Below are positions 2,809-57,468 of a stretch of 64,000 bases of DNA, in pieces. The notes beneath the pieces were generated by a model. The model saw nothing but the letters and a program-made list of their open reading frames with translations, was not told the DNA's origin and ran no database searches. The stretch lies in the NCBI RefSeq assembly GCF_003790525.1, contig NZ_CP033635.1, one strand, 5' to 3'. The position numbers were made by a program, and so were the translations under genes. Within the stretch, counting starts at the first letter, position 1. Every line of letters begins with the position of its first letter. This stretch comes from Escherichia coli (GTDB taxonomy: Bacteria > Pseudomonadota > Gammaproteobacteria > Enterobacterales > Enterobacteriaceae).

Positions 2809-3363
2809 CTATTTCTCCTGGAGGAATGCAAATAATTCAGCTTTTAGCCAGTTCAGCCCGGGAAGGTGCCTGACCGTAAAAATGAAATCTGTCTATCGGC
2901 GATGGCTTAATCATTTACCGCCGTAATAATTTGAGGGCGGAAAGATACACACAAGTTATGTATCTATCAGTGATCTTGATCCCAAATACAATAATCTACT
3001 TGGAAGATAGATTATCCCAACGCTTTACTCTGTAAATCAAAAGTAAAAGAGAATTTAAGGGCAATATTTGCCCATTAAACGACATCTGACTTCTTCCGGG
3101 GCGCGCAATATATGTAGGTTGAACTGAAAAAATCAATACTTTTAGTTAATCATGGCGATAATTTCTTTTTCATAGCGATAAAATGTGGTTTATGAAAATA
3201 GGGAAACGTTTGCGTTACAACATAAATTGTATGACATATTAACTATAATGATATTTATCGCGTGAGGGTGGTAAGAAACATTCATATAACAAATGAAATA
3301 AATTGATGGGTATGTGACCAAAAACGAGAAAACCCGGCAACAAACGTCACCGGGGGAGGGAGA

Positions 3364-4728
3364 TTACGTGCAGATTTCGTAGCAAGGGATGTAGGCTGAG
3401 CCTGGCAACTTCATACGATGCTGGGCAACAAAACCCTGTAGCAGGTCATCCATACGACGCATAATCTCTTTATCGCCGTTGATTTTATAAGGACCAAACT
3501 CTTCAATGGCGCGAATACCGACTTCTTTTACGTTACCCGCCACAATACCGGAGAACGCACGGCGCAGGTCGGCAGCCAGCACTTCAACGGGTTGATCCGG
3601 GTAAAGCTTCAGATTAGCCATATTCTCGTGAGACGGCTCAAACGGCATTTGCAAATCTGGCGCAATGCGCATTGACCAGTTAAAGCTGTAGGCATCGCCT
3701 GTGTCGCGGCGATTTTCTTTCACCAGCGGCATCGATTTTTTCATCTGACGAGCGACTTCAGCGGCGTCATCAATGATGATGCGGTAATGGCGGCGCGCGT
3801 TTTCACCCAACGTATGCACGACAAACTCGTCCAGTACGCGGAAGTAGTCGGCGCTCTCTTTCGGGCCGGTGAGGAGCAATGGTAAAACCTGATCTTTGTT
3901 GGCCGGGTTCATTAAAATTCCCAGCAAATACAGCAACTCTTCTGCCGTACCCACACCGCCAGGGAAGATAATGATACCGTGAGCGATACGGACAAACGCT
4001 TCCAGACGTTTTTCGATATCCGGCATGATGATCAATTCGTTGACCAGCGGGTTAGGCGGTTCAGCGGCGATAATCGATGGCTCTGTCATACCAATAAAAC
4101 GACTGTCTTTGTAACGCTGCTGTGCGTGTCCGACCGCAGCACCTTTCATTGGCGCTTCCATCGCTCCCGGACCACAGCCGGTGCAGATATTCAGCTCACG
4201 CAGGCCCAGCTGATTCCCGACGCGACGGGCATACAAATACTCGTTTTCGTTAATTGAGTGCCCGCCCCAGCAGACCACCATATTTGGCGCTTCACCAACA
4301 TGCAGCGCGCGAGCGTTACGCAAGATGGAAAAGACCAGGTTAGTGATGTGGACGGAGTTGTCGAGATTCAGGTTGGGAAAACGAACGGTGTTATGGATTT
4401 GCCCGTAAACGAAGAGAATGTCGCGCAGAACCGCGAACAAGTTGGCCTGCAAAGCGCGAATAATTCGCCCATCGACAAAAGCCTCTTCCGGGGGATTAAT
4501 CAGTTCCAGCTTTACGCCGCGTTCACGGCGCAGGACGTTAATATCGAAATTTTCAAAACGAGACAGCAATTCTTTGCTGTTATCGGTCAAACTACCGGAG
4601 TTCAGTACGGCAAGTGAACAGTTGCGAAACAGTTGATAGAGGTCGCTGCTGGCGGTGCGTTTAAGCATATCCACTTCCAGCTGCGACAACATATCCATGG
4701 AGCCAAGCGGGCTAATATGTGTAATCAA
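3364..4728 (-). CDS. ppnN: LOG-family nucleotide 5'-monophosphate nucleosidase (YgdH/PpnN)
   Basis: 454-aa ORF with PGGxGTxEE LOG motif ([12 protein letters not shown]); conserved synteny with sdaC and queF. Confidence 0.85.
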
Positions 4729-6520: not shown

Positions 6521-6877
6521 GAGTCAGACAACGAAGTGAACATCAGGATGATGACACTTCTGAAGGACACACCAGGATGGTGTTTCAGGGAAAGGCTTCT
6601 GGATGAAGCGAAGAGGATGACGCAGGACGCGTTAAAGGACACCTCCAGGATGGAGAATGAGAACCGGTCAGGATGATTCGGTGGGTCAGGAAGGCCAGGA
6701 ACACTTCAGGATGAAGTATCACATCGGGGTGGTGTGAGCAGGAAGCAATAGTTCAGGATGAACGATTGGTCGCAAGGCCAGAGGAAAAGTTGTCAAGGAT
6801 GAGCAGGGAGCAACAAAAGTAGCTGGAATGCTGCGAAACGAACCGGGAGCACTGTGAATACAGTGCTCCCTTTTTTT
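6521..6877 (+). ncRNA. csrB: CsrB regulatory RNA (CsrA-sequestering sRNA)
   Basis: about 360 nt with roughly 20 reiterated CAGGATG / AGGA(N) motifs on the plus strand, ending in a GC hairpin (gggagcactg...cagtgctccc) plus T7 run; non-coding (minus-strand ORFs here are spurious). Confidence 0.9.
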
Positions 6878-6922
6878 ATTCCTGCTATCCTTCGCGGCAG
6901 TTTTTCTTATTGAGGTTGCTTT

Positions 6923-11650: not shown

Positions 11651-12991
11651 ATGAGTTCTCAATTTTCGACGCCTGTTGTTACTGAAATGCAGGTCATCCC
11701 GGTGGCGGGCCATGACAGTATGCTGATGAATCTGAGTGGTGCACACGCACCGTTCTTCACGCGTAATATTGTGATTATCAAAGATAATTCTGGTCACACT
11801 GGGGTAGGGGAAATTCCCGGCGGCGAGAAAATCCGTAAAACGCTGGAAGATGCGATTCCGCTGGTGGTGGGTAAAACGCTGGGTGAATACAAAAACGTTC
11901 TGACGCTGGTGCGTAATACATTTGCCGATCGTGATGCCGGCGGGCGCGGTTTGCAGACATTTGACCTGCGGACCACTATTCATGTGGTTACCGGGATAGA
12001 AGCGGCAATGCTGGATCTGCTGGGGCAGCATCTGGGGGTTAACGTGGCATCGCTGCTGGGCGATGGTCAACAGCGTAGCGAAGTCGAAATGCTCGGTTAT
12101 CTGTTCTTCGTCGGTAATCGCAAAGCCACACCGCTGCCGTATCAAAGCCAGCCGGATGATCAATGTGACTGGTATCGCCTGCGTCACGAAGAAGCGATGA
12201 CGCCGGATGCGGTGGTGCGCCTGGCGGAAGCGGCATATGAAAAATATGGCTTCAACGATTTCAAACTGAAGGGCGGTGTACTGGCCGGGGAAGAAGAAGC
12301 AGAGTCTATTGTGGCACTGGCGCAACGCTTCCCACAGGCGCGTATTACCCTCGATCCTAACGGTGCCTGGTCGCTGAACGAAGCGATTAAAATTGGTACA
12401 TACCTGAAAGGTTCGCTGGCTTATGCAGAAGATCCGTGTGGTGCGGAGCAAGGTTTCTCCGGGCGTGAAGTGATGGCAGAGTTCCGTCGCGCGACTGGCC
12501 TGCCGACCGCAACCAATATGATCGCCACCGACTGGCGGCAGATGGGCCATACGCTCTCCCTGCAATCCGTTGATATCCCGCTGGCGGATCCGCATTTCTG
12601 GACGATGCAAGGTTCGGTACGTGTGGCGCAAATGTGCCATGAATTTGGCCTGACCTGGGGTTCACACTCTAACAACCACTTCGATATTTCTCTGGCGATG
12701 TTTACCCATGTAGCCGCTGCTGCACCGGGTAAAATTACTGCTATTGATACGCACTGGATCTGGCAGGAAGGCAATCAGCGTCTGACCAAAGAACCGTTTG
12801 AGATCAAAGGCGGGCTGGTACAGGTGCCGCAAAAACCAGGATTGGGCGTAGAAATCGATATGGATCAGGTGATGAAAGCCCACGAGCTGTATCAGAAACA
12901 TGGGCTTGGTGCGCGTGACGATGCGATGGGAATGCAGTACCTGATTCCTGGCTGGACGTTTGATAACAAGCGCCCGTGCATGGTGCGTTAA
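11651..12991 (+). CDS. gudD: D-glucarate dehydratase
   Basis: 446-aa enolase-superfamily ORF; ATG at 11651 with AAGGA RBS (track start 11627 is an extension). Confidence 0.9.
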
Positions 12992-13002
12992 GACTGAAAA
13001 CA

Positions 13003-13030
13003 AAAACCGGCTCTGTCAGGAGCCGGTTTG
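13003..13030 (+). terminator. gudD terminator hairpin (aaaccggct...agccggttt)
   Basis: 9-bp stem immediately after gudD stop, between convergent gudD and barA. Confidence 0.5.
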
Positions 13031-13113
13031 AGACTGATGCCAAACGCAAAATTGCCTGTTGCGCTACGTATCAGGCCAACATACTTTTTAATTCATTGAA
13101 TTTAATTGGTTTT

Positions 13114-13148
13114 GTAGGCAGGATAAGGCGTTAACGCCGCATCCGGCA
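13114..13148. repeat. REP (repetitive extragenic palindrome) element
   Basis: gtaggcaggataaggcgttaacgccgcatccggca; classic REP consensus. Confidence 0.7.
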
Positions 13149-13221
13149 TAAACACAGGCACTTTGTCACCAGTCTGAAACCAGCTTCATAAAAAGCCGAT
13201 TGCTACTCGACAAGACGTCCG

Positions 13222-15978
13222 TTACCCGAGAATTTTGCTGGCTTCGCGCGCTACATTATCCATCTCGTCTAACAGTTCCAGCAGCTCCGGCTCCAAATCT
13301 TCTTCTTTAGTACCGCTACGTAGCTGTTGTTCGATCAGTTGGCAGAGATTTTTCATACGCGGCACACCGCTATAGCCGCAACTGCCATGCAGTTTATGAA
13401 TCAAATCAACCAGGCCTTCCGGGTTTTCTCCAACCAGCTGTTCCTCAACTTTGTTGCGAACTTCAGGCAGGAAATCGAGTAACATTTGCAGCATATCGCG
13501 CGCTAAATCGGTTTTTCCTGCTGCCTGGCGTAGTGCCAGTTGCCAGTCGAGGGTCGCATTCGGGTTCACCACAATTTCGTTGACTTCGGGCGTCACGACG
13601 CGAGAGGAAATACCGCTGCCAGGCTTATAGCGCAACAACAAATTATGCAATCGCTCTTCTTCAATCGGTTTCGCCAGATAATCGCTCATCCCTGCGCCAA
13701 GCAGCTTCTCTTTTTGCCCGGCCATTGCATGCGCCGTTACCGCGATAACCGGCGTTTGTTGCTGATGGGGGAGCTGGTGGATGAGTTCGCAGGCCCGAAT
13801 GCCGTCCATGTCCGGCATTTGAATATCCATTAAGATCAAATCGAACGGCATCTGTTTCGCCCGTTCAACCGCCTGATGCCCGCTATCGCAAAGTTCCACA
13901 TGTTGCACCATATCTTCCAGCAATGCGCCGATAAGTTTCAGGTTAGCGGGGTTGTCATCAACCGCCATGACTGTCATTGCCAGCTTACTTTCATCGGTTA
14001 CAGGCAAAAGCGTGTTTTGTTTGTGATGACAAAATTCCGTCAGGGCAGGTAACAGGCGCGTAGGTGTTAATGGTTTCAGCAGACACGCGCCGATACCATC
14101 TTGCTTAAGTTTTTCAGCATTGACTTGTGCATGGCAAGGAAGTGCCAGCATCAGAAAATCGGTCATCGATACTGCTTTCGCTAATCGCTCATGTTGCATT
14201 GTTAGCGGCTCGCGGAAGGTCACCGCGATGCCTAACAACATCATGTCGTAATGCGCGGGAGGCAGCGCGGAGAACGTTGGGCTATAAACCACTTCCAGCG
14301 GCGTTTCACTTAAAATATCCAGCGTGCATTGCGCTGCTGCGGAGTTTGGTTCGACATAGGCCAGGCGCTTACCGGCGAGGCACTGGGTGGATGGCCCTTC
14401 GATAATAATGTTCGGGTTCAGATCGAGATTAATGTGGAACCAGAAAGTTGAACCACGATTCGGCTGGCTATGGAACGAAATATCACCGCCCATTTCATTA
14501 ACCAGTTTTTGTGTAATCACCAGCCCCAGCCCGGTGCCACCATGACGGCGGGAAATACTGGCATCAGCCTGTCTGAAGGCCTGGAATAAGCGCGATTGGT
14601 CGCGTTCAGGAATACCAATGCCGGTATCCCGAATCTGCACTTCAATTTGCACTTTGGTATTACTCAGCGCACGTTTTTCTACCAGAATATCAATGTTGCC
14701 ATTCTCGGTGAATTTAATTGCATTCCCCACCAGGTTAGTGATGATTTGCTGTAATCGTAGTGGGTCGCCGATAACGTTATCAGGCACGTCGCTTTTAATA
14801 TTGAGCGTCAGTTCCAGCCCTTTATCGTGAGAAGAATGTGCCAGCAGGGTAACGACTTCATCCAGCGTGCTGCGTAGTGGGAATGGAATACTTTCCAGAA
14901 TCAGCTTACCTGCTTCCAGTTTCGAGAAGTCGAGAACATCATTAATAATTGCCAGCAAATTATTTGCCGAACGTTCAATCGTATTCAGGTGATCGCGCTG
15001 CGTTGGTGTTAATTCTGTTTTCAGCGTCAGGCGGGTAAAGCCAATAACACCATTCAGTGGTGTACGCAGCTCGTGTGACATATTTGCCAGAAACTCGGAT
15101 TTAATACGCGCCGCTTCCTGGGCGCGCTTTTTCGCCAGATCCAACTCAACGTTCTGAATTTCCATCTGCTCCAGCGTCTCACGCAGATCGGACGTCGCCT
15201 GGTCGATATTGTGTTGCATCTCTTCGTGATAAGCCGCCAGCGACATTGCCATCGAGTTGATACCGTTTTTCAGCATATCCAGCTCGCCGAGCATAAATCC
15301 TTCCACCCGGCTGTCGAGTTGCCCGCGACGGATGCGGTCGACGGTATTCACCATGTTGCGAATCGGGCCGGTAACATCGCGCATTAAGCGCCAGCCAAAA
15401 ATAAGCGCAATACCGATACAAAACAGCATCATCACGCTGGAAATAAAGATCTCTTTATATTGCTGCAAGCGAACCGATTTAAGATCCAGCTCCAGCGCAA
15501 TATATCCCAGCATATTTTGACTATTTTTGGCATCGCTACTGGGCGATTCGTCGGGGGAGTAACTTTCAGAAATAATCGGCGTGCGGAGGATCATTATATC
15601 GCCGTCACGAGTGACAGTGAGCTGGCGAGGAAACGGCACGTTGCTGCCGAGCTGCATTGATGAGGGATCAAGATGAAAATTGGAGGTGACAAAGAGTCGG
15701 TTATTTTCATCATAAACCGAAATCGCGCGAACAATATCAGAATGGCGACGATGCAGTACGCTTATTAACTGACCGATAGATTCGCGATTTTGCAGACTCA
15801 TGCCATATTCAGTAGAAACTGCAAGCGGCTCAATAATGCTGGCACCGGCATCTTCCAGTTGACGCTGCAAGTCGTTATAGCGATGCACGACGAAAAAGAT
15901 ACTCAGCAATAAACCAATAAGGACGGTCGGTGCCAGGATCAGAATCATCATGCGTGCGCGCAGGCTGTAGTTGGTCAT
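13222..15978 (-). CDS. barA: hybrid sensor histidine kinase BarA
   Basis: 918-aa ORF with HAMP, HisKA (SHELRTPLN), HATPase, receiver and HPt domains. Confidence 0.95.
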
Positions 15979-16034
15979 GGAGTTCCGTTATGGGACAATT
16001 AAGGTCACACTGTTAAATTGAGAAAGTCTCGCCA

Positions 16035-17336
16035 ATGGCGCAATTCTACTCTGCAAAACGACGCACGACGACGCGTCAGATCATAACCGTTTCAGTCAAT
16101 GACCTCGACTCTTTTGGTCAGGGCGTGGCGCGACATAACGGCAAAACGTTATTTATTCCTGGATTATTGCCACAGGAAAACGCGGAAGTTACTGTTACTG
16201 AAGATAAAAAACAGTACGCCCGCGCTAAAGTCGTACGCCGGTTAAGCGATAGCCCGGAACGCGAAACGCCACGCTGCCCTCATTTTGGCGTATGCGGTGG
16301 CTGTCAGCAACAACACGCCAGCGAGGATTTACAGCAGCGAAGCAAAAGTGCGGCACTCGCCCGATTAATGAAACACGAAGTCTCTGAAGTGATCGCCGAT
16401 GTTCCCTGGGGCTATCGCCGTCGCGCGCGTTTAAGTTTGAACTACTTACCGAAAACACAGCAACTTCAGATGGGGTTTCGCAAAGCGGGCTCCAGTGACA
16501 TTGTCGACGTTAAACAATGCCCCATTTTAGTGCCCCAACTTGAAGCATTGCTGCCCAAAGTCAGGGCATGCCTGGGCAGCTTACAAGCTATGCGCCATCT
16601 TGGTCATGTTGAACTGGTACAGGCAACCAGCGGCACGCTGATGATTTTGCGCCATACCGCACCGCTAAGTTCGGTAGATCGCGAAAAACTGGAACGCTTT
16701 TCGCATTCTGAAGGCCTGGATCTGTATCTCGCCCCCGATAGTGAGATACTCGAAACCGTCTCTGGTGAGATGCCCTGGTATGACTCAAACGGGTTGCGCT
16801 TAACTTTTAGCCCGCGCGATTTTATTCAGGTCAATGCGGGTGTGAACCAAAAAATGGTAGCGCGTGCGTTGGAATGGCTGGATGTACAACCTGAAGATCG
16901 CGTACTGGATCTGTTCTGCGGTATGGGCAACTTTACACTGCCATTGGCGACACAAGCTGCCAGTGTGGTGGGTGTAGAAGGCGTTCCGGCGCTGGTGGAA
17001 AAAGGCCAGCAGAATGCGCGTCTTAATGGCTTACACAATGTGACGTTTTATCACGAAAATCTTGAAGAAGATGTCACAAAGCAGCCGTGGGCGAAAAACG
17101 GCTTCGATAAAGTGTTGCTGGACCCGGCGCGAGCAGGTGCCGCAGGTGTTATGCAGCAAATTATAAAACTGGAACCTATTCGTATAGTTTATGTATCCTG
17201 TAATCCTGCAACGCTGGCTCGGGATAGCGAAGCGTTATTAAAAGCAGGATATACCATTGCGCGACTGGCGATGCTGGATATGTTCCCACACACGGGACAT
17301 CTGGAATCGATGGTACTTTTCTCGCGCGTTAAATAG
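16035..17336 (+). CDS. rlmD: 23S rRNA (uracil1939-C5)-methyltransferase
   Basis: 433-aa ORF with TRAM domain, Fe-S Cys cluster ([11 protein letters not shown]) and SAM-MTase fold. Confidence 0.9.
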
Positions 17337-52073: not shown

Positions 52074-52808
52074 ATGTCCAAACTCGATCTAAACGCCCTG
52101 AACGAACTGCCGAAGGTAGATCGCATTCTGGCGCTGGCGGAAACTAACGCCGAACTGGAAAAACTGGACGCTGAAGGCCGCGTTGCCTGGGCGCTGGATA
52201 ATCTGCCCGGTGAATATGTACTTTCTTCCAGCTTTGGCATTCAGGCGGCGGTGAGCCTGCATCTGGTGAATCAGATTCACCCGGATATTCCAGTGATCCT
52301 CACCGATACCGGTTATCTGTTCCCGGAAACCTACCGCTTTATTGACGAGTTAACGGACAAACTCAAACTCAACCTGAAAGTGTACCGTGCTACCGAAAGC
52401 GCTGCCTGGCAGGAAGCGCGCTACGGCAAACTGTGGGAACAGGGCGTTGAAGGTATTGAAAAGTACAACGATATCAACAAAGTCGAACCGATGAACCGGG
52501 CGCTAAAAGAACTGAACGCGCAAACCTGGTTTGCCGGCCTGCGCCGTGAACAATCCGGCAGTCGTGCCAATTTACCGGTGCTGGCAATTCAGCGTGGCGT
52601 ATTTAAAGTGCTGCCGATTATCGACTGGGATAACCGAACTATTTATCAGTACCTGCAAAAACATGGCCTGAAATATCACCCATTATGGGATGAAGGATAT
52701 TTATCGGTCGGTGATACCCATACAACCCGTAAATGGGAACCCGGCATGGCGGAAGAAGAAACGCGTTTCTTTGGCTTAAAAAGAGAATGTGGGTTACACG
52801 AAGGGTAA
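52074..52808 (+). CDS. cysH: phosphoadenosine phosphosulfate (PAPS) reductase
   Basis: 244 aa from [14 protein letters not shown]; GAGGA RBS; track start 51921 reads through the REP. Confidence 0.95.
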
Positions 52809-52826
52809 ATATTGCCGGATAAATTA

Positions 52827-52864
52827 AACGCCTCTGTCAGAAATGATGGGGGCGTTTTTATTTT
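52827..52864 (+). terminator. putative cysH terminator
   Basis: aaacgcc...ggcgttt stem followed by tttttatttt. Confidence 0.4.
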
Positions 52865-53072
52865 GCGAGCAGCATTCCTGATTTTAAACGTGAACGTCGT
52901 TGGAAGAATTAACAGGTATAGAATGGCGTTGGGTGCTTGAGGCTGTCTGGCGTTAAGCATTCGCGAGGTTCCAGATGGACAAAAGCCCCAGGCGATATTT
53001 CTATCAACCTGAGGCCAGCGTTCGAACCCAAACAATTCGAATGTTAGTCTCTTCTTTGCAGGGAGGCAAGAC

Positions 53073-53225
53073 ATGCTGACAAAATATGCCCTTGTGGCAA
53101 TCATAGTGCTGTGTTTTACAGTACTGGGATTCACGCTGATGGTAGGCGACTCGTTGTGTGAGTTGAGTATCAGAGAACGTGGTATGGAGTTTAAGGCGGT
53201 TCTCGCTTACGAATCGAAGAAGTAG
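53073..53225 (+). CDS. Hok/Gef-family type I toxin (HokE-like small membrane peptide)
   Basis: 50-aa [53 protein letters not shown]; single TM helix, conserved Cys and C-terminal AYES motif; GGGAGG RBS; not in the supplied ORF track (below length cut-off). Confidence 0.8.
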
Positions 53226-53246
53226 CCACCACGCGGGGGTAAAACC

Positions 53247-54585
53247 CATAAGCGCTAACTTAAGGGTTGTGGTATTACGCCTGATATGATTTAACGTGCC
53301 GATGAATTACTCTCACGATAACTGGTCAGCAATTCTGGCCCATATTGGTAAGCCCGAAGAACTGGATACTTCGGCACGTAATGCCGGGGCTCTAACCCGC
53401 CGCCGCGAAATTCGTGATGCTGCAACTCTGCTACGTCTGGGGCTGGCTTACGGCCCCGGGGGGATGTCATTACGTGAAGTCACTGCATGGGCTCAGCTCC
53501 ATGACGTTGCAACATTATCTGACGTGGCTCTCCTGAAGCGGCTGCGGAATGCCGCCGACTGGTTTGGCATACTTGCCGCACAAACACTTGCTGTACGCGC
53601 CGCAGTTACGGGTTGTACAAGCGGAAAGAGATTGCGTCTTGTCGATGGAACAGCAATCAGTGCGCCCGGGGGCGGCAGCGCTGAATGGCGACTACATATG
53701 GGATATGATCCTCATACCTGTCAGTTCACTGATTTTGAGCTAACCGACAGCAGAGACGCTGAACGGCTGGACCGATTTGCGCAAACGGCAGACGAGATAC
53801 GCATTGCTGACCGGGGATTCGGTTCGCGTCCCGAATGTATCCGCTCACTTGCTTTTGGAGAAGCTGATTATATCGTCCGGGTTCACTGGCGAGGATTGCG
53901 CTGGTTAACTGCAGAAGGAATGCGCTTTGACATGATGGGTTTTCTGCGCGGGCTGGATTGCGGTAAGAACGGTGAAACCACTGTAATGATAGGCAATTCA
54001 GGTAATAAAAAAGCCGGAGCTCCCTTTCCGGCACGTCTCATTGCCGTATCACTTCCTCCCGAAAAAGCATTAATCAGTAAAACCCGACTGCTCAGCGAGA
54101 ATCGTCGAAAAGGACGAGTAGTTCAGGCGGAAACGCTGGAAGCAGCGGGCCATGTGCTATTGCTAACATCATTACCGGAAGATGAATATTCAGCAGAGCA
54201 AGTGGCTGATTGTTACCGTCTGCGATGGCAAATTGAACTGGCTTTTAAGCGGCTCAAAAGTTTGCTGCACCTGGATGCTTTGCGTGCAAAGGAACCTGAA
54301 CTCGCGAAAGCGTGGATATTTGCTAATCTACTCGCCGCATTTTTAATTGACGACATAATCCAGCCATCGCTGGATTTCCCCCCCAGAAGTGCCGGATCCG
54401 AAAAGAAGAACTAACTCGTTGTGGAGAATAACAAAAATGGTCATCTGGAGCTTACAGGTGGCCATTCGTGGGACAGTATCCCTGACAGCCTACAAAACGC
54501 AATTGAAGAACGCGAGGCATCGTCTTAACGAGGCACCGAGGCGTCGCATTCTTCAGATGGTTCAACCCTTAAGTTAGCGCTTATG
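53247..54585 (+). mobile_element. IS186 insertion sequence
   Basis: 1339 bp; perfect 23-bp terminal IRs (cataagcgctaacttaagggttg); flanking about 11-bp direct repeat gggtaaaaccc within a GGGG-N6-CCCC palindrome. Confidence 0.9.
53302..54414 (+). CDS. insL: IS186 transposase (IS4 family)
   Basis: about 370 aa from MNYSHDNWSAILAHIGKPEEL, recognisable as the IS186 transposase. Confidence 0.9.
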   Translation: MNYSHDNWSAILAHIGKPEELDTSARNAGALTRRREIRDAATLLRLGLAYGPGGMSLREVTAWAQLHDVATLSDVALLKRLRNAADWFGILAAQTLAVRAAVTGCTSGKRLRLVDGTAISAPGGGSAEWRLHMGYDPHTCQFTDFELTDSRDAERLDRFAQTADEIRIADRGFGSRPECIRSLAFGEADYIVRVHWRGLRWLTAEGMRFDMMGFLRGLDCGKNGETTVMIGNSGNKKAGAPFPARLIAVSLPPEKALISKTRLLSENRRKGRVVQAETLEAAGHVLLLTSLPEDEYSAEQVADCYRLRWQIELAFKRLKSLLHLDALRAKEPELAKAWIFANLLAAFLIDDIIQPSLDFPPRSAGSEKKN

Positions 54586-54768
54586 GGGTAAAACCCCGCG
54601 TACTGAATTGTGATGGTTTGGTCTCCTGCACCCTTTTTTAATTTATATTGTTTATGTGAATATTATGCCTATGTTTATTATTCATATATATTACGGATGA
54701 AAATTATTTGATTATTCATAATGTAAATATTTTATTGAACGATATATATCACAGATAATTTTTAATAT

Positions 54769-57468
54769 ATGCGTAAATATCCTTTAAGTTTACTGAAGGA
54801 TAAAAATATTGTGACTTTTTTTGATTTCTGGGGAAAAACCCGACGCGGCGAGAAAGACGGGGGCGACGACTATCACCTTCTTTGCTGGCATTCGCTGGAT
54901 GTAGCCGCGATGGGCTATTTAATGGTTAAAAGCAATTGCTTCGGACTGGCTGACTATTTTCGTCAATTAGGTTTCGCTGACACGGAGCAGGCAGCACAAT
55001 TTTTCGCCTGGCTGCTGTGCTGGCACGATATTGGAAAATTTGCCCGCTCTTTTCAGCAACTTTACCTGCACCCACAACTCAAGGTCCCGGAAGGCGCAAG
55101 AAAGAATTACGAAAAGATCTCTCATTCAACGCTGGGCTACTGGTTGTGGAACCATTATTTAAGTGAATGTCAGGAGTTGCTTCCTTCATCTTCACTCTCT
55201 CCGCGCAAACTTAAACGGGTGATGGAGATGTGGATGCCCATGACTACCGGGCATCATGGTCGACCCCCTGAGCGTATGGATGAACTGGATAATTTTCTGC
55301 CTGAAGACAAAGGTGCCGCACGAGATTTTCTCCTTGCAATCAAGGTACTGTTTCCGCTCATAGAGATCCCCACATTCTGGGATGATGACGAGGGCGTTGA
55401 ACTTATAAAACAACTTTCCTGGTATATCTCTGCAACCGTCGTACTTGCAGACTGGACGGGATCGTCAACGCGATATTTTCCACGCGTCGCACAGACAATG
55501 GATATTGAAGATTACTGGCAGAAAACTTTAGTTCAGGCTCAAAACGCCTTAACCGTCTTTCCTCCAAAAGCAGAAAGCGCGCCTTTCACCGGAATTAATA
55601 CGCTGTTTCCTTTTATTGAGAATCCGACACCGCTACAGCAAAAGGTGCTGGATCTGGATATCAGCCAGCCGGGACCACAGTTATTTATTCTGGAGGATGT
55701 AACCGGCGCAGGTAAAACAGAAGCGGCGCTTATCCTGGCGCACAGGTTGATGGCTGCGGGGAAAGCGCAGGGTTTGTTTTTTGGCCTGCCAACAATGGCA
55801 ACGGCCAATGCCATGTACGATCGACTGGTCAAAACCTGGCTTGCTTTCTATTCGCCAGAGTCCCGCCCCAGCCTGGTGCTGGCACACAGTGCCCGAACAT
55901 TAATGGACCGCTTTAATGAATCACTCTGGTCCGGTGATTTAGTCGGGTCAGAAGAACCGGATGAACAAACGTTCAGTCAGGGATGTGCGGCCTGGTTTGC
56001 CGACAGTAACAAGAAGGCGCTACTGGCTGAAATTGGCGTCGGCACGCTGGATCAGGCGATGATGGCTGTGATGCCGTTCAAACATAATAATCTGCGGCTT
56101 CTGGGACTGAGTAACAAAATCCTGCTGGCTGATGAGATCCATGCCTGTGACGCTTACATGTCATGCATTCTTGAAGGGCTGATCGAGCGGCAGGCGCGTG
56201 GCGGAAACAGCGTCATTTTGCTTTCTGCCACGTTATCTCAACAGCAGCGCGACAAACTCGTTGCTGCCTTTGCGCGTGGTATAGAGGGCCAGCAAGAAGC
56301 TCCGTTCCTGGAAAAGGATGATTACCCCTGGCTGACGCACGTTACGAAATCCGATGTGCATTCACACCGGGTAGCGACGCGCAAAGACGTTGAGCGCAGC
56401 GTGAGTGTGGGTTGGCTTCATAGCGAACAAGAGTGTATTGCGCGTATCGCATCGGCGGTAAGTCAGGGGAAATGTATCGCCTGGATCCGAAATTCTGTCG
56501 ATGACGCCATCCAGGTTCATCGTCAGTTACTTGCCCGCGGCGTCATTCCTGCTTCCAGCCTTTCACTTTTTCATAGCCGCTTTGCTTTTAGCGATCGCCA
56601 GCGAATTGAAACGGAGACGCTGGCACGCTTTGGTAAAGAAGACTGTTCACAGCGTGCCGGAAAAGTCCTCATTTGTACTCAAGTCCTGGAGCAGAGCGTT
56701 GACTGCGACCTGGACGAAATGATTTCCGACCTTGCCCCTGTTGATTTACTGATCCAGCGAGCAGGGCGATTACAGCGACATATCCGCGATATGAATGGCC
56801 AGTTAAAGCGTGACGGTAAAGACGAGCGTCACCCTCCTGAATTGCTGATTCTGGCCCCCGTCTGGGACGACTCTCCGGGTGACGAATGGTTTGGCAGTGC
56901 CATGCGTAACAGTGCATTTGTCTATCCCGATCATGGGCGAATCTGGCTGACGCAGCGTGTGCTGCGTGAGCAAGGTGCTATTCAGATGCCACACTCAGCC
57001 CGGCTTCTGATTGAATCAGTCTACGGTGAGGACGTAGTAATGCCGGAAGGGTTTGCCCGCAGCGAGCAGGAGCAAGTGGGCAAATATTACTGCGATCGCG
57101 CAATGGCTAAAAAGTTTGTACTGAACTTCAGGCCCGGCTATGCCGCCAATATCAACGATTACCTCCCGGAAAAACTGTCGACACGTCTGGCTGAAGAGTC
57201 TGTTTCCCTGTGGCTGGCTACCTGTATTGACGGTGTGGTGAAGCCTTATGCCACAGGTGCACACGCATGGGAAATGAGCGTTGTCAGAGTGCGCCGAAGC
57301 TGGTGGAAAAAACATCGGGATGAGTTTTCTTTACTGGAAGGGGATGCGTTCAGGCAGTGGTGCGTTGAACAGCGGCATGATCCGGAGATGGCAAACGTGA
57401 TTTTAGTCACCGATGACGAAAGTTGTGGGTATTCGGCTACGGAGGGATTGATTGGCAAGGTTGGTTGA
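54769..57468 (+). CDS. cas3: Cas3 nuclease-helicase (type I-E)
   Basis: 899 aa; N-terminal HD motif (HSLDVAAM), Walker A (TGAGKTEAAL), DExH (DEIHA); heads the cas operon. Confidence 0.9.
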   Translation: MRKYPLSLLKDKNIVTFFDFWGKTRRGEKDGGDDYHLLCWHSLDVAAMGYLMVKSNCFGLADYFRQLGFADTEQAAQFFAWLLCWHDIGKFARSFQQLYLHPQLKVPEGARKNYEKISHSTLGYWLWNHYLSECQELLPSSSLSPRKLKRVMEMWMPMTTGHHGRPPERMDELDNFLPEDKGAARDFLLAIKVLFPLIEIPTFWDDDEGVELIKQLSWYISATVVLADWTGSSTRYFPRVAQTMDIEDYWQKTLVQAQNALTVFPPKAESAPFTGINTLFPFIENPTPLQQKVLDLDISQPGPQLFILEDVTGAGKTEAALILAHRLMAAGKAQGLFFGLPTMATANAMYDRLVKTWLAFYSPESRPSLVLAHSARTLMDRFNESLWSGDLVGSEEPDEQTFSQGCAAWFADSNKKALLAEIGVGTLDQAMMAVMPFKHNNLRLLGLSNKILLADEIHACDAYMSCILEGLIERQARGGNSVILLSATLSQQQRDKLVAAFARGIEGQQEAPFLEKDDYPWLTHVTKSDVHSHRVATRKDVERSVSVGWLHSEQECIARIASAVSQGKCIAWIRNSVDDAIQVHRQLLARGVIPASSLSLFHSRFAFSDRQRIETETLARFGKEDCSQRAGKVLICTQVLEQSVDCDLDEMISDLAPVDLLIQRAGRLQRHIRDMNGQLKRDGKDERHPPELLILAPVWDDSPGDEWFGSAMRNSAFVYPDHGRIWLTQRVLREQGAIQMPHSARLLIESVYGEDVVMPEGFARSEQEQVGKYYCDRAMAKKFVLNFRPGYAANINDYLPEKLSTRLAEESVSLWLATCIDGVVKPYATGAHAWEMSVVRVRRSWWKKHRDEFSLLEGDAFRQWCVEQRHDPEMANVILVTDDESCGYSATEGLIGKVG

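Follow-up and report, generated by a model that had tools for sequence, protein, structure and literature searches.

INTRODUCTION

The hok/sok system of plasmid R1 is the reference for the locus considered here, a chromosomal hok/sok-type toxin–antitoxin locus of Escherichia coli that carries a copy of the insertion sequence (IS) IS186 directly behind its toxin gene. The locus lies in a stretch of 64,000 nucleotides (nt) from RefSeq assembly GCF_003790525.1 (contig NZ_CP033635.1), which is called the window below; positions are counted from its first letter. In R1, trimming of the 3' end back to a terminal stem-loop activates a hok mRNA that is held closed by pairing of its tac and fbi elements (PMC9841398). 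Within the R1 3' untranslated region (UTR), 19 of 22 loss-of-function substitutions break C-G pairs in the processed mRNA's terminal stem, and in the mutants G345A and C358A the processed hok mRNA disappears (PMC9841398).

Several chromosomal relatives have been described. The hok loci of K-12 and hokX of E. coli B are referred to as inactivated by insertion elements in a statement in PMC7232551 that cites Pedersen & Gerdes 1999, and according to a passage in PMC3562002 the IS186 copy 3' of gef/hokC is thought to disrupt fbi, the mRNA ending inside the IS. In the region of cysH and cas3, IS186 has been found beside hok-sok at a 'hot spot' that is GC-rich (Almendros et al. 2014; PMC3903273), and its copies there have been connected with the deletion of cas-E genes and with their replacement (PMC3903273). 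A further IS186 hot spot with a GC-rich target is the lon promoter (SaiSree et al. 2001, as cited in PMC3045373 and PMC4618355); the element has been called 'GC-specific' (Chong et al. 1985, as cited in PMC3903273), and homologues of hok/sok appear in a list of genes that lie close to insertion hot spots of mobile elements (Durrant et al., bioRxiv 10.1101/527788). The allele in the window is a further instance of this already described polymorphism, of which both the mechanism and the occurrence are published. What we add is the exact insertion register common to four sites, the finding of both IS orientations at three hok loci, and a census figure for complete E. coli genomes.

RESULTS

IS186 splits the hairpin behind an intact hokX gene

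We conclude, with a probability that we put at roughly 80%, that hokX/sokX in the window is interrupted by IS186 at a hairpin that is a preferred target of this element, and that the toxin gene is functionally silenced. By homology and gene order the locus is hokX/sokX, a chromosomal type I toxin–antitoxin paralogue of the hok family between cysH and cas3: the window holds, in this order, cysH, the cysH terminator, the hok/sok-type locus, IS186, a 44-nt remnant, an AT-rich spacer and cas3 (Table 1). The 5' part of the locus (52931-53088) matches Rfam RF01794 with 111.1 bits (gathering score 59; E 7e-26) at model positions 1-157 of 157. The open reading frame (ORF) of hokX matches Pfam PF01848 HOK_GEF with residues 5-46 (E 3.5e-11); the NCBIfam Hok family models also match it, at scores below their own curated cut-offs. 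The stop of a mok-like leader ORF falls 7 nt inside the hok start region, which by analogy would couple the translation of the two.

The inserted element is identical to K-12 IS186A at 1339 of 1339 positions and is bounded by perfect 23-bp terminal inverted repeats, CATAAGCGCTAACTTAAGGGTTG, which occur at only these two places in the 64-kb window. Its transposase belongs to the IS4 family (NF033592; 133.3 bits vs a cut-off of 115) and carries the RefSeq label 'IS4-like element IS421 family transposase'. The direct repeat GGGGTAAAACCC flanks the element at 53236-53247 and 54585-54596, which amounts to 12 bp when the ambiguous end bases are counted; if these bases are assigned to the IS, whose ends then read CATAAG...CTTATG, the target duplication is 10 bp long and reads GGGTAAAACC. 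Excision of IS186 together with one copy of the duplication yields ACGCGGGGGTAAAACCCCGCGT, in which the hairpin ACGCGGGG-GTAAAA-CCCCGCGT is rebuilt, and a 400-nt reconstruction of the empty site finds a 100% match in strain 2014C-3075. The motif is rare: 0.62 occurrences of GGGG-N6-CCCC are expected per 64 kb, and no second one was found elsewhere in the 64-kb window. The initial annotation of this DNA had proposed an IS186 copy at 53247-54585, inserted 21 bp after the hok stop codon into a GGGG-N6-CCCC hairpin that its removal would restore, and had pointed to copies of the element just 3' of the hokC and hokE reading frames of K-12. These proposals hold in every part. The copy has the length, the repeats and the identity given above; the stop codon TAG occupies 53223-53225, with 21 bases (53226-53246) between it and IS186; the reconstruction corresponds to a real uninterrupted allele; and both K-12 copies are present in the K-12 sequence.

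Three further features of the element and its surroundings may be recorded here. Inside IS186 an inverted repeat (53294-53307 / 53366-53379; 14 nt, 86% complementary) would pair the ATG of the transposase at 53302 with a segment further downstream, and could limit translation of the transposase from read-through transcripts, e.g. those coming from hok. Antisense to the transposase, on the minus strand, there is a hairpin resembling a terminator, with a T-run behind it (54032-54013); hok transcripts would meet this site in alleles with the inverted orientation, among them those of K-12 hokC and E. coli B hokX. On the downstream side, 183 bp separate the end of the element from the start codon of cas3, toward which the transposase is read, and the AT-rich spacer (54640-54768) remains joined to cas3.

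The insertion register is shared by three hok paralogues and the nupC terminator

With slashes marking the borders of the IS, the register at hokX is GGGGG-TAAAA-CC/IS/GGG-TAAAA-CCCC, that at K-12 hokC is GGGG-AGTGAT-CC/IS/GG-AGTGAT-CCCC, and that at K-12 hokE is GGGG-AGTAAT-CC/IS/GG-AGTAAT-CCCC. The third K-12 copy (IS186C, 2514273-2515617) splits the hairpin of the nupC terminator, AAAAAGCCGGGG-ATAATT-CCCCGGTTTTTTT, and has produced the 10-bp duplication GGATAATTCC; its register, GGGG-ATAATT-CC/IS, is the same as in the hok hairpins. Duplications of 10 bp are found at all four sites (hokX, hokC, hokE and nupC), and the target motif as used here was derived from these four. On this basis IS186 would recognise GGGG-N6-CCCC and duplicate GG-N6-CC, and the GC-clamped stem-loop situated shortly 3' of the stop codon in hok mRNAs would present a perfect instance of the rare motif; measured against the motif, the hok hairpin is a perfect IS186 target. 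To our knowledge, the terminal stem-loop of R1 hok does not fit GGGG-N6-CCCC.

The K-12 loci hokC (gef)/sokC and hokE/sokE resemble the locus in the window closely. In both, the homologous post-stop hairpin holds the identical 1339-bp IS186 in the register seen in the window, with a 10-bp duplication, and the IS parts the reading frame from a GCACCC fbi element and a T-run; when IS186 is removed from them in silico, the same layout appears, with a GCACC(C) element ahead of the T-run. The IS of hokE has the orientation seen in the window, whereas that of hokC has the opposite one. The window differs from both in representing another paralogue, located at cysH-cas3, with GGGTAAAACC as its loop and duplication.

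At the hokX locus itself, E. coli B REL606 shares the left junction of the window, ...GGGGGTAAAACC/CATAAGCG, but its IS186 is inverted relative to the window, and an extra IS150 lies between the 5' end of the hok mRNA and the ORF. Its right flank consists of CRISPR repeats without a target duplication, the cas genes being deleted (12500-16100 of the extracted locus), and to judge from the sequence this is what a deletion of cas between two copies of IS186 would leave behind. The window, in contrast, has the direct orientation, both copies of the duplication, the orphan fbi tail and an intact cas3. The cysH-hok/sok-IS186-cas3 arrangements described in PMC3903273 likewise have IS186 between hok-sok and the cas-E1 genes. 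With the lon promoter hot spot the locus shares insertion that is recurrent and site-specific, occurs in either orientation and is aimed at a short motif with a GC clamp; the target at hokX, however, is a structural RNA element within a toxin mRNA and not a promoter.

IS186 occupies the hok hairpins in many genomes and in both orientations

Recurrence was determined in 5,426 complete E. coli genomes. The queries were 800-nt junctions (600 nt of unique flank plus 200 nt of IS) with a required coverage of at least 80%, which paralogues cannot satisfy; an earlier count of 1693 genomes, obtained with a 1961-nt query, was discarded, because paralogous loci with hokE and IS186 can cover at least 80% of that query. 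At hokX, 171 genomes, strain CM2 among them, carry IS186 in direct and 597 in inverted orientation, and the uninterrupted site is present in at least 2264 of the 5426; the corresponding numbers are 653, 662 and 3463 for hokC, and 1288, 216 and 3378 for hokE. Both orientations thus occur at each of the three loci, and at each of them 14–28% of the complete genomes contain the insertion. Altogether 8519 IS186 copies were found in 2197 genomes. Of the 7708 chromosomal copies, approximately 3587 (47%) reside in the three hok hairpins.

Could these numbers go back to one ancient, vertically inherited insertion per locus, with no target preference, the shared position in the paralogues being a coincidence or the result of gene conversion between hok loci? 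The genome counts are clonally structured and the occupied hokX alleles are very alike, both of which would suit such a history. It would have to accommodate, however, two orientations at all three loci, a duplication sequence that is each locus's own and matches its own loop, the same GGGG-N6-CCCC register in the unrelated nupC terminator, and the rarity of the motif. Evidence also comes from strain EC332 (NZ_AP039429.1; IS at 3100-4439 of the extracted locus), where a 1339-bp IS186 identical to that of the window occupies the very same position at hokX and has the 10-bp duplication in unchanged form, but lies in inverted orientation. The flanks of the two alleles show 0 mismatches in 1000 nt on each side, yet the orientations of the IS are opposite, which indicates that the EC332 allele arose by an independent insertion or by inversion in place, and not by simple descent. 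We therefore regard a single ancient insertion per locus as very improbable. Repeated landing of IS186, in either orientation, in hokX, hokC and hokE would instead follow from the fit of the hok stem-loop to the rare target motif.

The orphaned tail is predicted to pair with the 5' end of the rebuilt hok mRNA

Joining 52931-53246 to 54596-54639 gives a rebuilt hok mRNA of 360 nt. In its minimum-free-energy fold, nt 1-6 and 9-14 pair with nt 341-346 and 349-354 (window 54620-54633), so that the 5' end, GGGUGC..GAGGCU, is complementary to the orphaned 3' segment over 12 bp; the post-stop hairpin forms at nt 301-322. The energy of the 5'/3' duplex is -20.6 kcal/mol, a value that was reached by only 3 of 2000 shuffled tails and by 0.35% of genomic 32-mers; the pair probabilities are ~0.97. 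As predicted by the fold, this pairing is the classical tac/fbi closure, and its two partners lie 1.7 kb apart in the window itself.

Among the hokX alleles, which are 91–100% identical, homology extends through the T6 run at 54639 and then stops, even in B2 strains that have iap in place of cas3 downstream; position 54639 is thereby marked as the 3' end of the locus, and the tail 3' of the hairpin measures 38 nt. The hairpin itself was considered as the hok terminator and rejected: no T-run follows it, and the T6 run comes 38 nt further on. A search for tac/fbi covariation among the same alleles found none, as both elements are invariant; only the comparison with hokC and hokE is informative. 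Across the paralogues, the outermost pair of the hairpin stem covaries (C-G in hokX, G-C in hokC, U-A in hokE), and by this covariation the post-stop hairpin is a real RNA structure. Its putative role in protecting the 3' end of the processed mRNA is carried over from R1.

In its overall design the locus is much like hok/sok of R1: it has a Hok/Gef toxin, an antisense Sok, a mok-like leader ORF and 5'-3' closure, as well as a GC-rich stem-loop soon after the stop codon that is followed by a tail ending in fbi (~38 nt in hokX). It differs in being chromosomal and in its tac/fbi pair, which is GGGUGC/GCACCC at hokX and GGCGC/GCGCC in R1. By analogy with R1 only, 3' processing and killing would be expected of hokX as well.

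The initial annotation had also regarded the 3' segment as an fbi-like complement of the mRNA 5' end, and in this the fold and the duplex statistics agree with it. It had named two observations that would speak against its proposal, namely uninterrupted loci without 5'/3' complementarity and a hok transcript ending before 53246. The complementarity is present, and homology as far as 54639 fits an mRNA end at that position.

Silencing of hokX is the most likely consequence of the insertion

In the uninterrupted locus, the 360-nt mRNA would close on itself by pairing of the 5' tac with the 3' fbi element. If it behaves as in R1, the closed mRNA would be stable, untranslatable and blind to Sok, until slow 3' trimming of the ~38 nt back to the stem-loop frees the active form. 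The insertion halves the stem-loop that should shield the processed mRNA from 3' exonucleases, and puts 1.35 kb between this site and both fbi and the terminator. Transcripts that run into the IS would then fold locally at their 5' end, like the processed form, with an unprotected 3' end; paired with the constitutively made SokX, they would be rapidly degraded by Sok and exonucleases. The net effect would be loss of the stable, inert mRNA reservoir and silencing of the toxin, although both the hok ORF and sokX are intact. In the predicted folds of transcripts ending at the hairpin or 60-600 nt into the IS, nt 1-32 form a local hairpin and fbi pairing is absent. A surrogate fbi was sought inside IS186; the element contains no GCACCC and a single 7-mer complementary to the mRNA 5' end.

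We favour silencing because the split hairpin matches in position the terminal stem-loop of the processed R1 mRNA, the weakening of which abolishes processed mRNA and toxicity (PMC9841398). As the most likely consequence of the insertion, silencing is inferred by analogy with R1, and so is the fate of the transcript. The opposite outcome, which the initial annotation had named alongside silencing without deciding between the two, would be deregulation: transcripts without fbi would adopt the open, translatable fold at once, and more toxin, with growth or persistence phenotypes, would follow. Interrupted transcripts are indeed predicted to fold their 5' end like the processed form, and removal of fbi activates translation in R1 (PMC9841398). 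However, the open form also binds Sok, and the sokX gene is intact, without a difference from that of K-12; the 3' stem-loop that would give protection is broken up, which in R1 abolishes processed mRNA and toxicity; and occupied alleles at the frequencies seen for the three loci exclude strong toxicity, i.e. they are incompatible with lethal deregulation. Deregulation is thus improbable in our view, and with sokX intact and the insertion present in many lineages, silencing is the best reading, in agreement with the published accounts of the K-12 hok loci and E. coli B hokX (PMC7232551) and of gef/hokC (PMC3562002).

Several points weigh against silencing at a preferred target. The census counts genomes and not independent insertion events, and is clonally biased. 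For the mechanism, results from R1 are carried over to hokX on the basis of positional homology. In the occupied allele no decay of the hok ORF is seen: the whole ORF lies within the 400-nt reconstruction that matches the uninterrupted strain at 100%. Sequence decay thus gives no sign of lost function, although the insertion may simply be recent. Furthermore, when the + strand of IS186 was scanned for intrinsic terminators, none was convincing (the one candidate, at 54302-54315, is weak and has a poor T-tail), so that transcripts could reach the original terminator. In the minimum-free-energy fold of the resulting 1709-nt read-through RNA, the tac/fbi helices are retained and the terminal repeats of the IS close the split hairpin (53231-53269 with 54563-54601). 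If such read-through takes place, function might, according to this model, be partly kept.

Taken to its end, this would make the insertion benign: the IS would sit in the hairpin loop with its terminal repeats extending the stem, and a read-through hok-IS186-fbi RNA would keep the native architecture, leaving a module, with its intact hok ORF and sokX, that is regulated and functional. The thermodynamic fold of a 1.7-kb RNA, however, takes no account of folding during transcription, of ribosomes on the transposase ORF or of Rho, and during the ~1.35 kb of extra transcription the 5' end would be in the processed-like fold that is accessible to Sok. In addition, the hokC/gef mRNA is reported in PMC3562002 to end inside the IS, which is oppositely oriented there and has the minus-strand terminator-like site (54032-54013) in the path of the transcript, and the statement in PMC7232551 treats alleles of this kind as inactivated. 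We therefore consider a benign insertion unlikely and retain silencing of hokX as our conclusion.

Features of the locus and its neighbourhood

The coordinates of all features are collected in Table 1.

Table 1. Features of the interrupted hokX/sokX locus and its neighbours (window coordinates)
Feature	Position	Strand	Basis
cysH (phosphoadenosine phosphosulfate reductase), upstream neighbour; fixes the chromosomal position of hokX	52074..52808	+	ORF list; cysH annotation in homologous regions elsewhere
Terminator-like hairpin and T-run of cysH, intrinsic, 5' of the hok promoter	52826..52857	+	Terminator scan
hok mRNA 5' UTR; begins GGGUGCUUGAGGCU (tac element); holds the Sok target and the mok/hok start region	52931..53088	+	Rfam RF01794
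sokX antisense RNA gene	52975..53033	-	59/59 identity to annotated sokX (b4701), K-12 MG1655
mok-like leader ORF, 34 codons	52975..53079	+	ORF list; putative role, by analogy with R1 mok/hok coupling (PMC9841398)
hok (hokX) toxin ORF, 50 aa, intact	53073..53225	+	Pfam PF01848 HOK_GEF; RefSeq homologues labelled 'Hok/Gef family protein'
Split hairpin, 5' half (ACGCGGGG and loop), with left copy of the target duplication GGGTAAAACC (53237-53246)	53231..53246	+	
IS186, 1339 bp; terminal inverted repeats 53247-53269 and 54563-54585; transposase ORF 53302-54414, co-directional with hok	53247..54585	+	Identity to K-12 IS186A
Right copy of the target duplication (54586-54595) and hairpin 3' half (CCCCGCGT, 54594-54601)	54586..54601	+	
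Orphaned hok mRNA 3' tail; predicted fbi GGUCUC..GCACCC 54620-54633; T6 run 54634-54639	54602..54639	+	Fold of the rebuilt transcript; homology of hokX alleles
cas3 (cas-E1 type, 899 aa), downstream neighbour	54769..57468	+	ORF list; RefSeq annotation of homologues

Two observations concern the 5' part of the locus. The model RF01794, named 'sok antitoxin', matches 157 nt on the hok-mRNA strand, and sokX as annotated in K-12 lies on the opposite strand; the model thus describes the hok 5' UTR and not the antisense RNA. K-12 MG1655 (2887100-2888500, compared with window 52809-53075) retains the hokX promoter, the 5' UTR and sokX, and is homologous to the window exactly as far as the hok ATG and no further; unrelated sequence follows, toward a cas3 of the cas-E2 type. 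From this alignment, the hokX toxin ORF of K-12 is deleted at a very sharp breakpoint. Elsewhere in the window, and unrelated to hokX, lies the gene for the small RNA CsrB (6521-6880, + strand; RF00018, 383 bits).

DISCUSSION

A more far-reaching idea, in which we have little confidence, is that the post-stop stem-loops of hok genes are the main chromosomal home of IS186, in a relationship that is possibly functional or possibly neutral. If this is true, the hok promoter would, in the direct orientation, read into the transposase frame, the IS repeats would re-close the hairpin so that the hok architecture is kept, and transposase expression would come under RNA control of the hok/Sok type. 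Alternatively, the hairpins would be selectively neutral 'safe havens' that keep IS186 alive in the species.

The insertion at hokX, for its part, is a case in which an insertion sequence finds its target motif in an RNA element that has a function in a toxin mRNA, and because of this coincidence the same regulatory lesion recurs in paralogous toxin–antitoxin loci. This would explain why many chromosomal hok genes of E. coli look intact and yet are considered inactive. For annotation it means that a Hok/Gef ORF which looks 'intact' but has IS186 beside it should not be taken for a functional type I toxin–antitoxin system.

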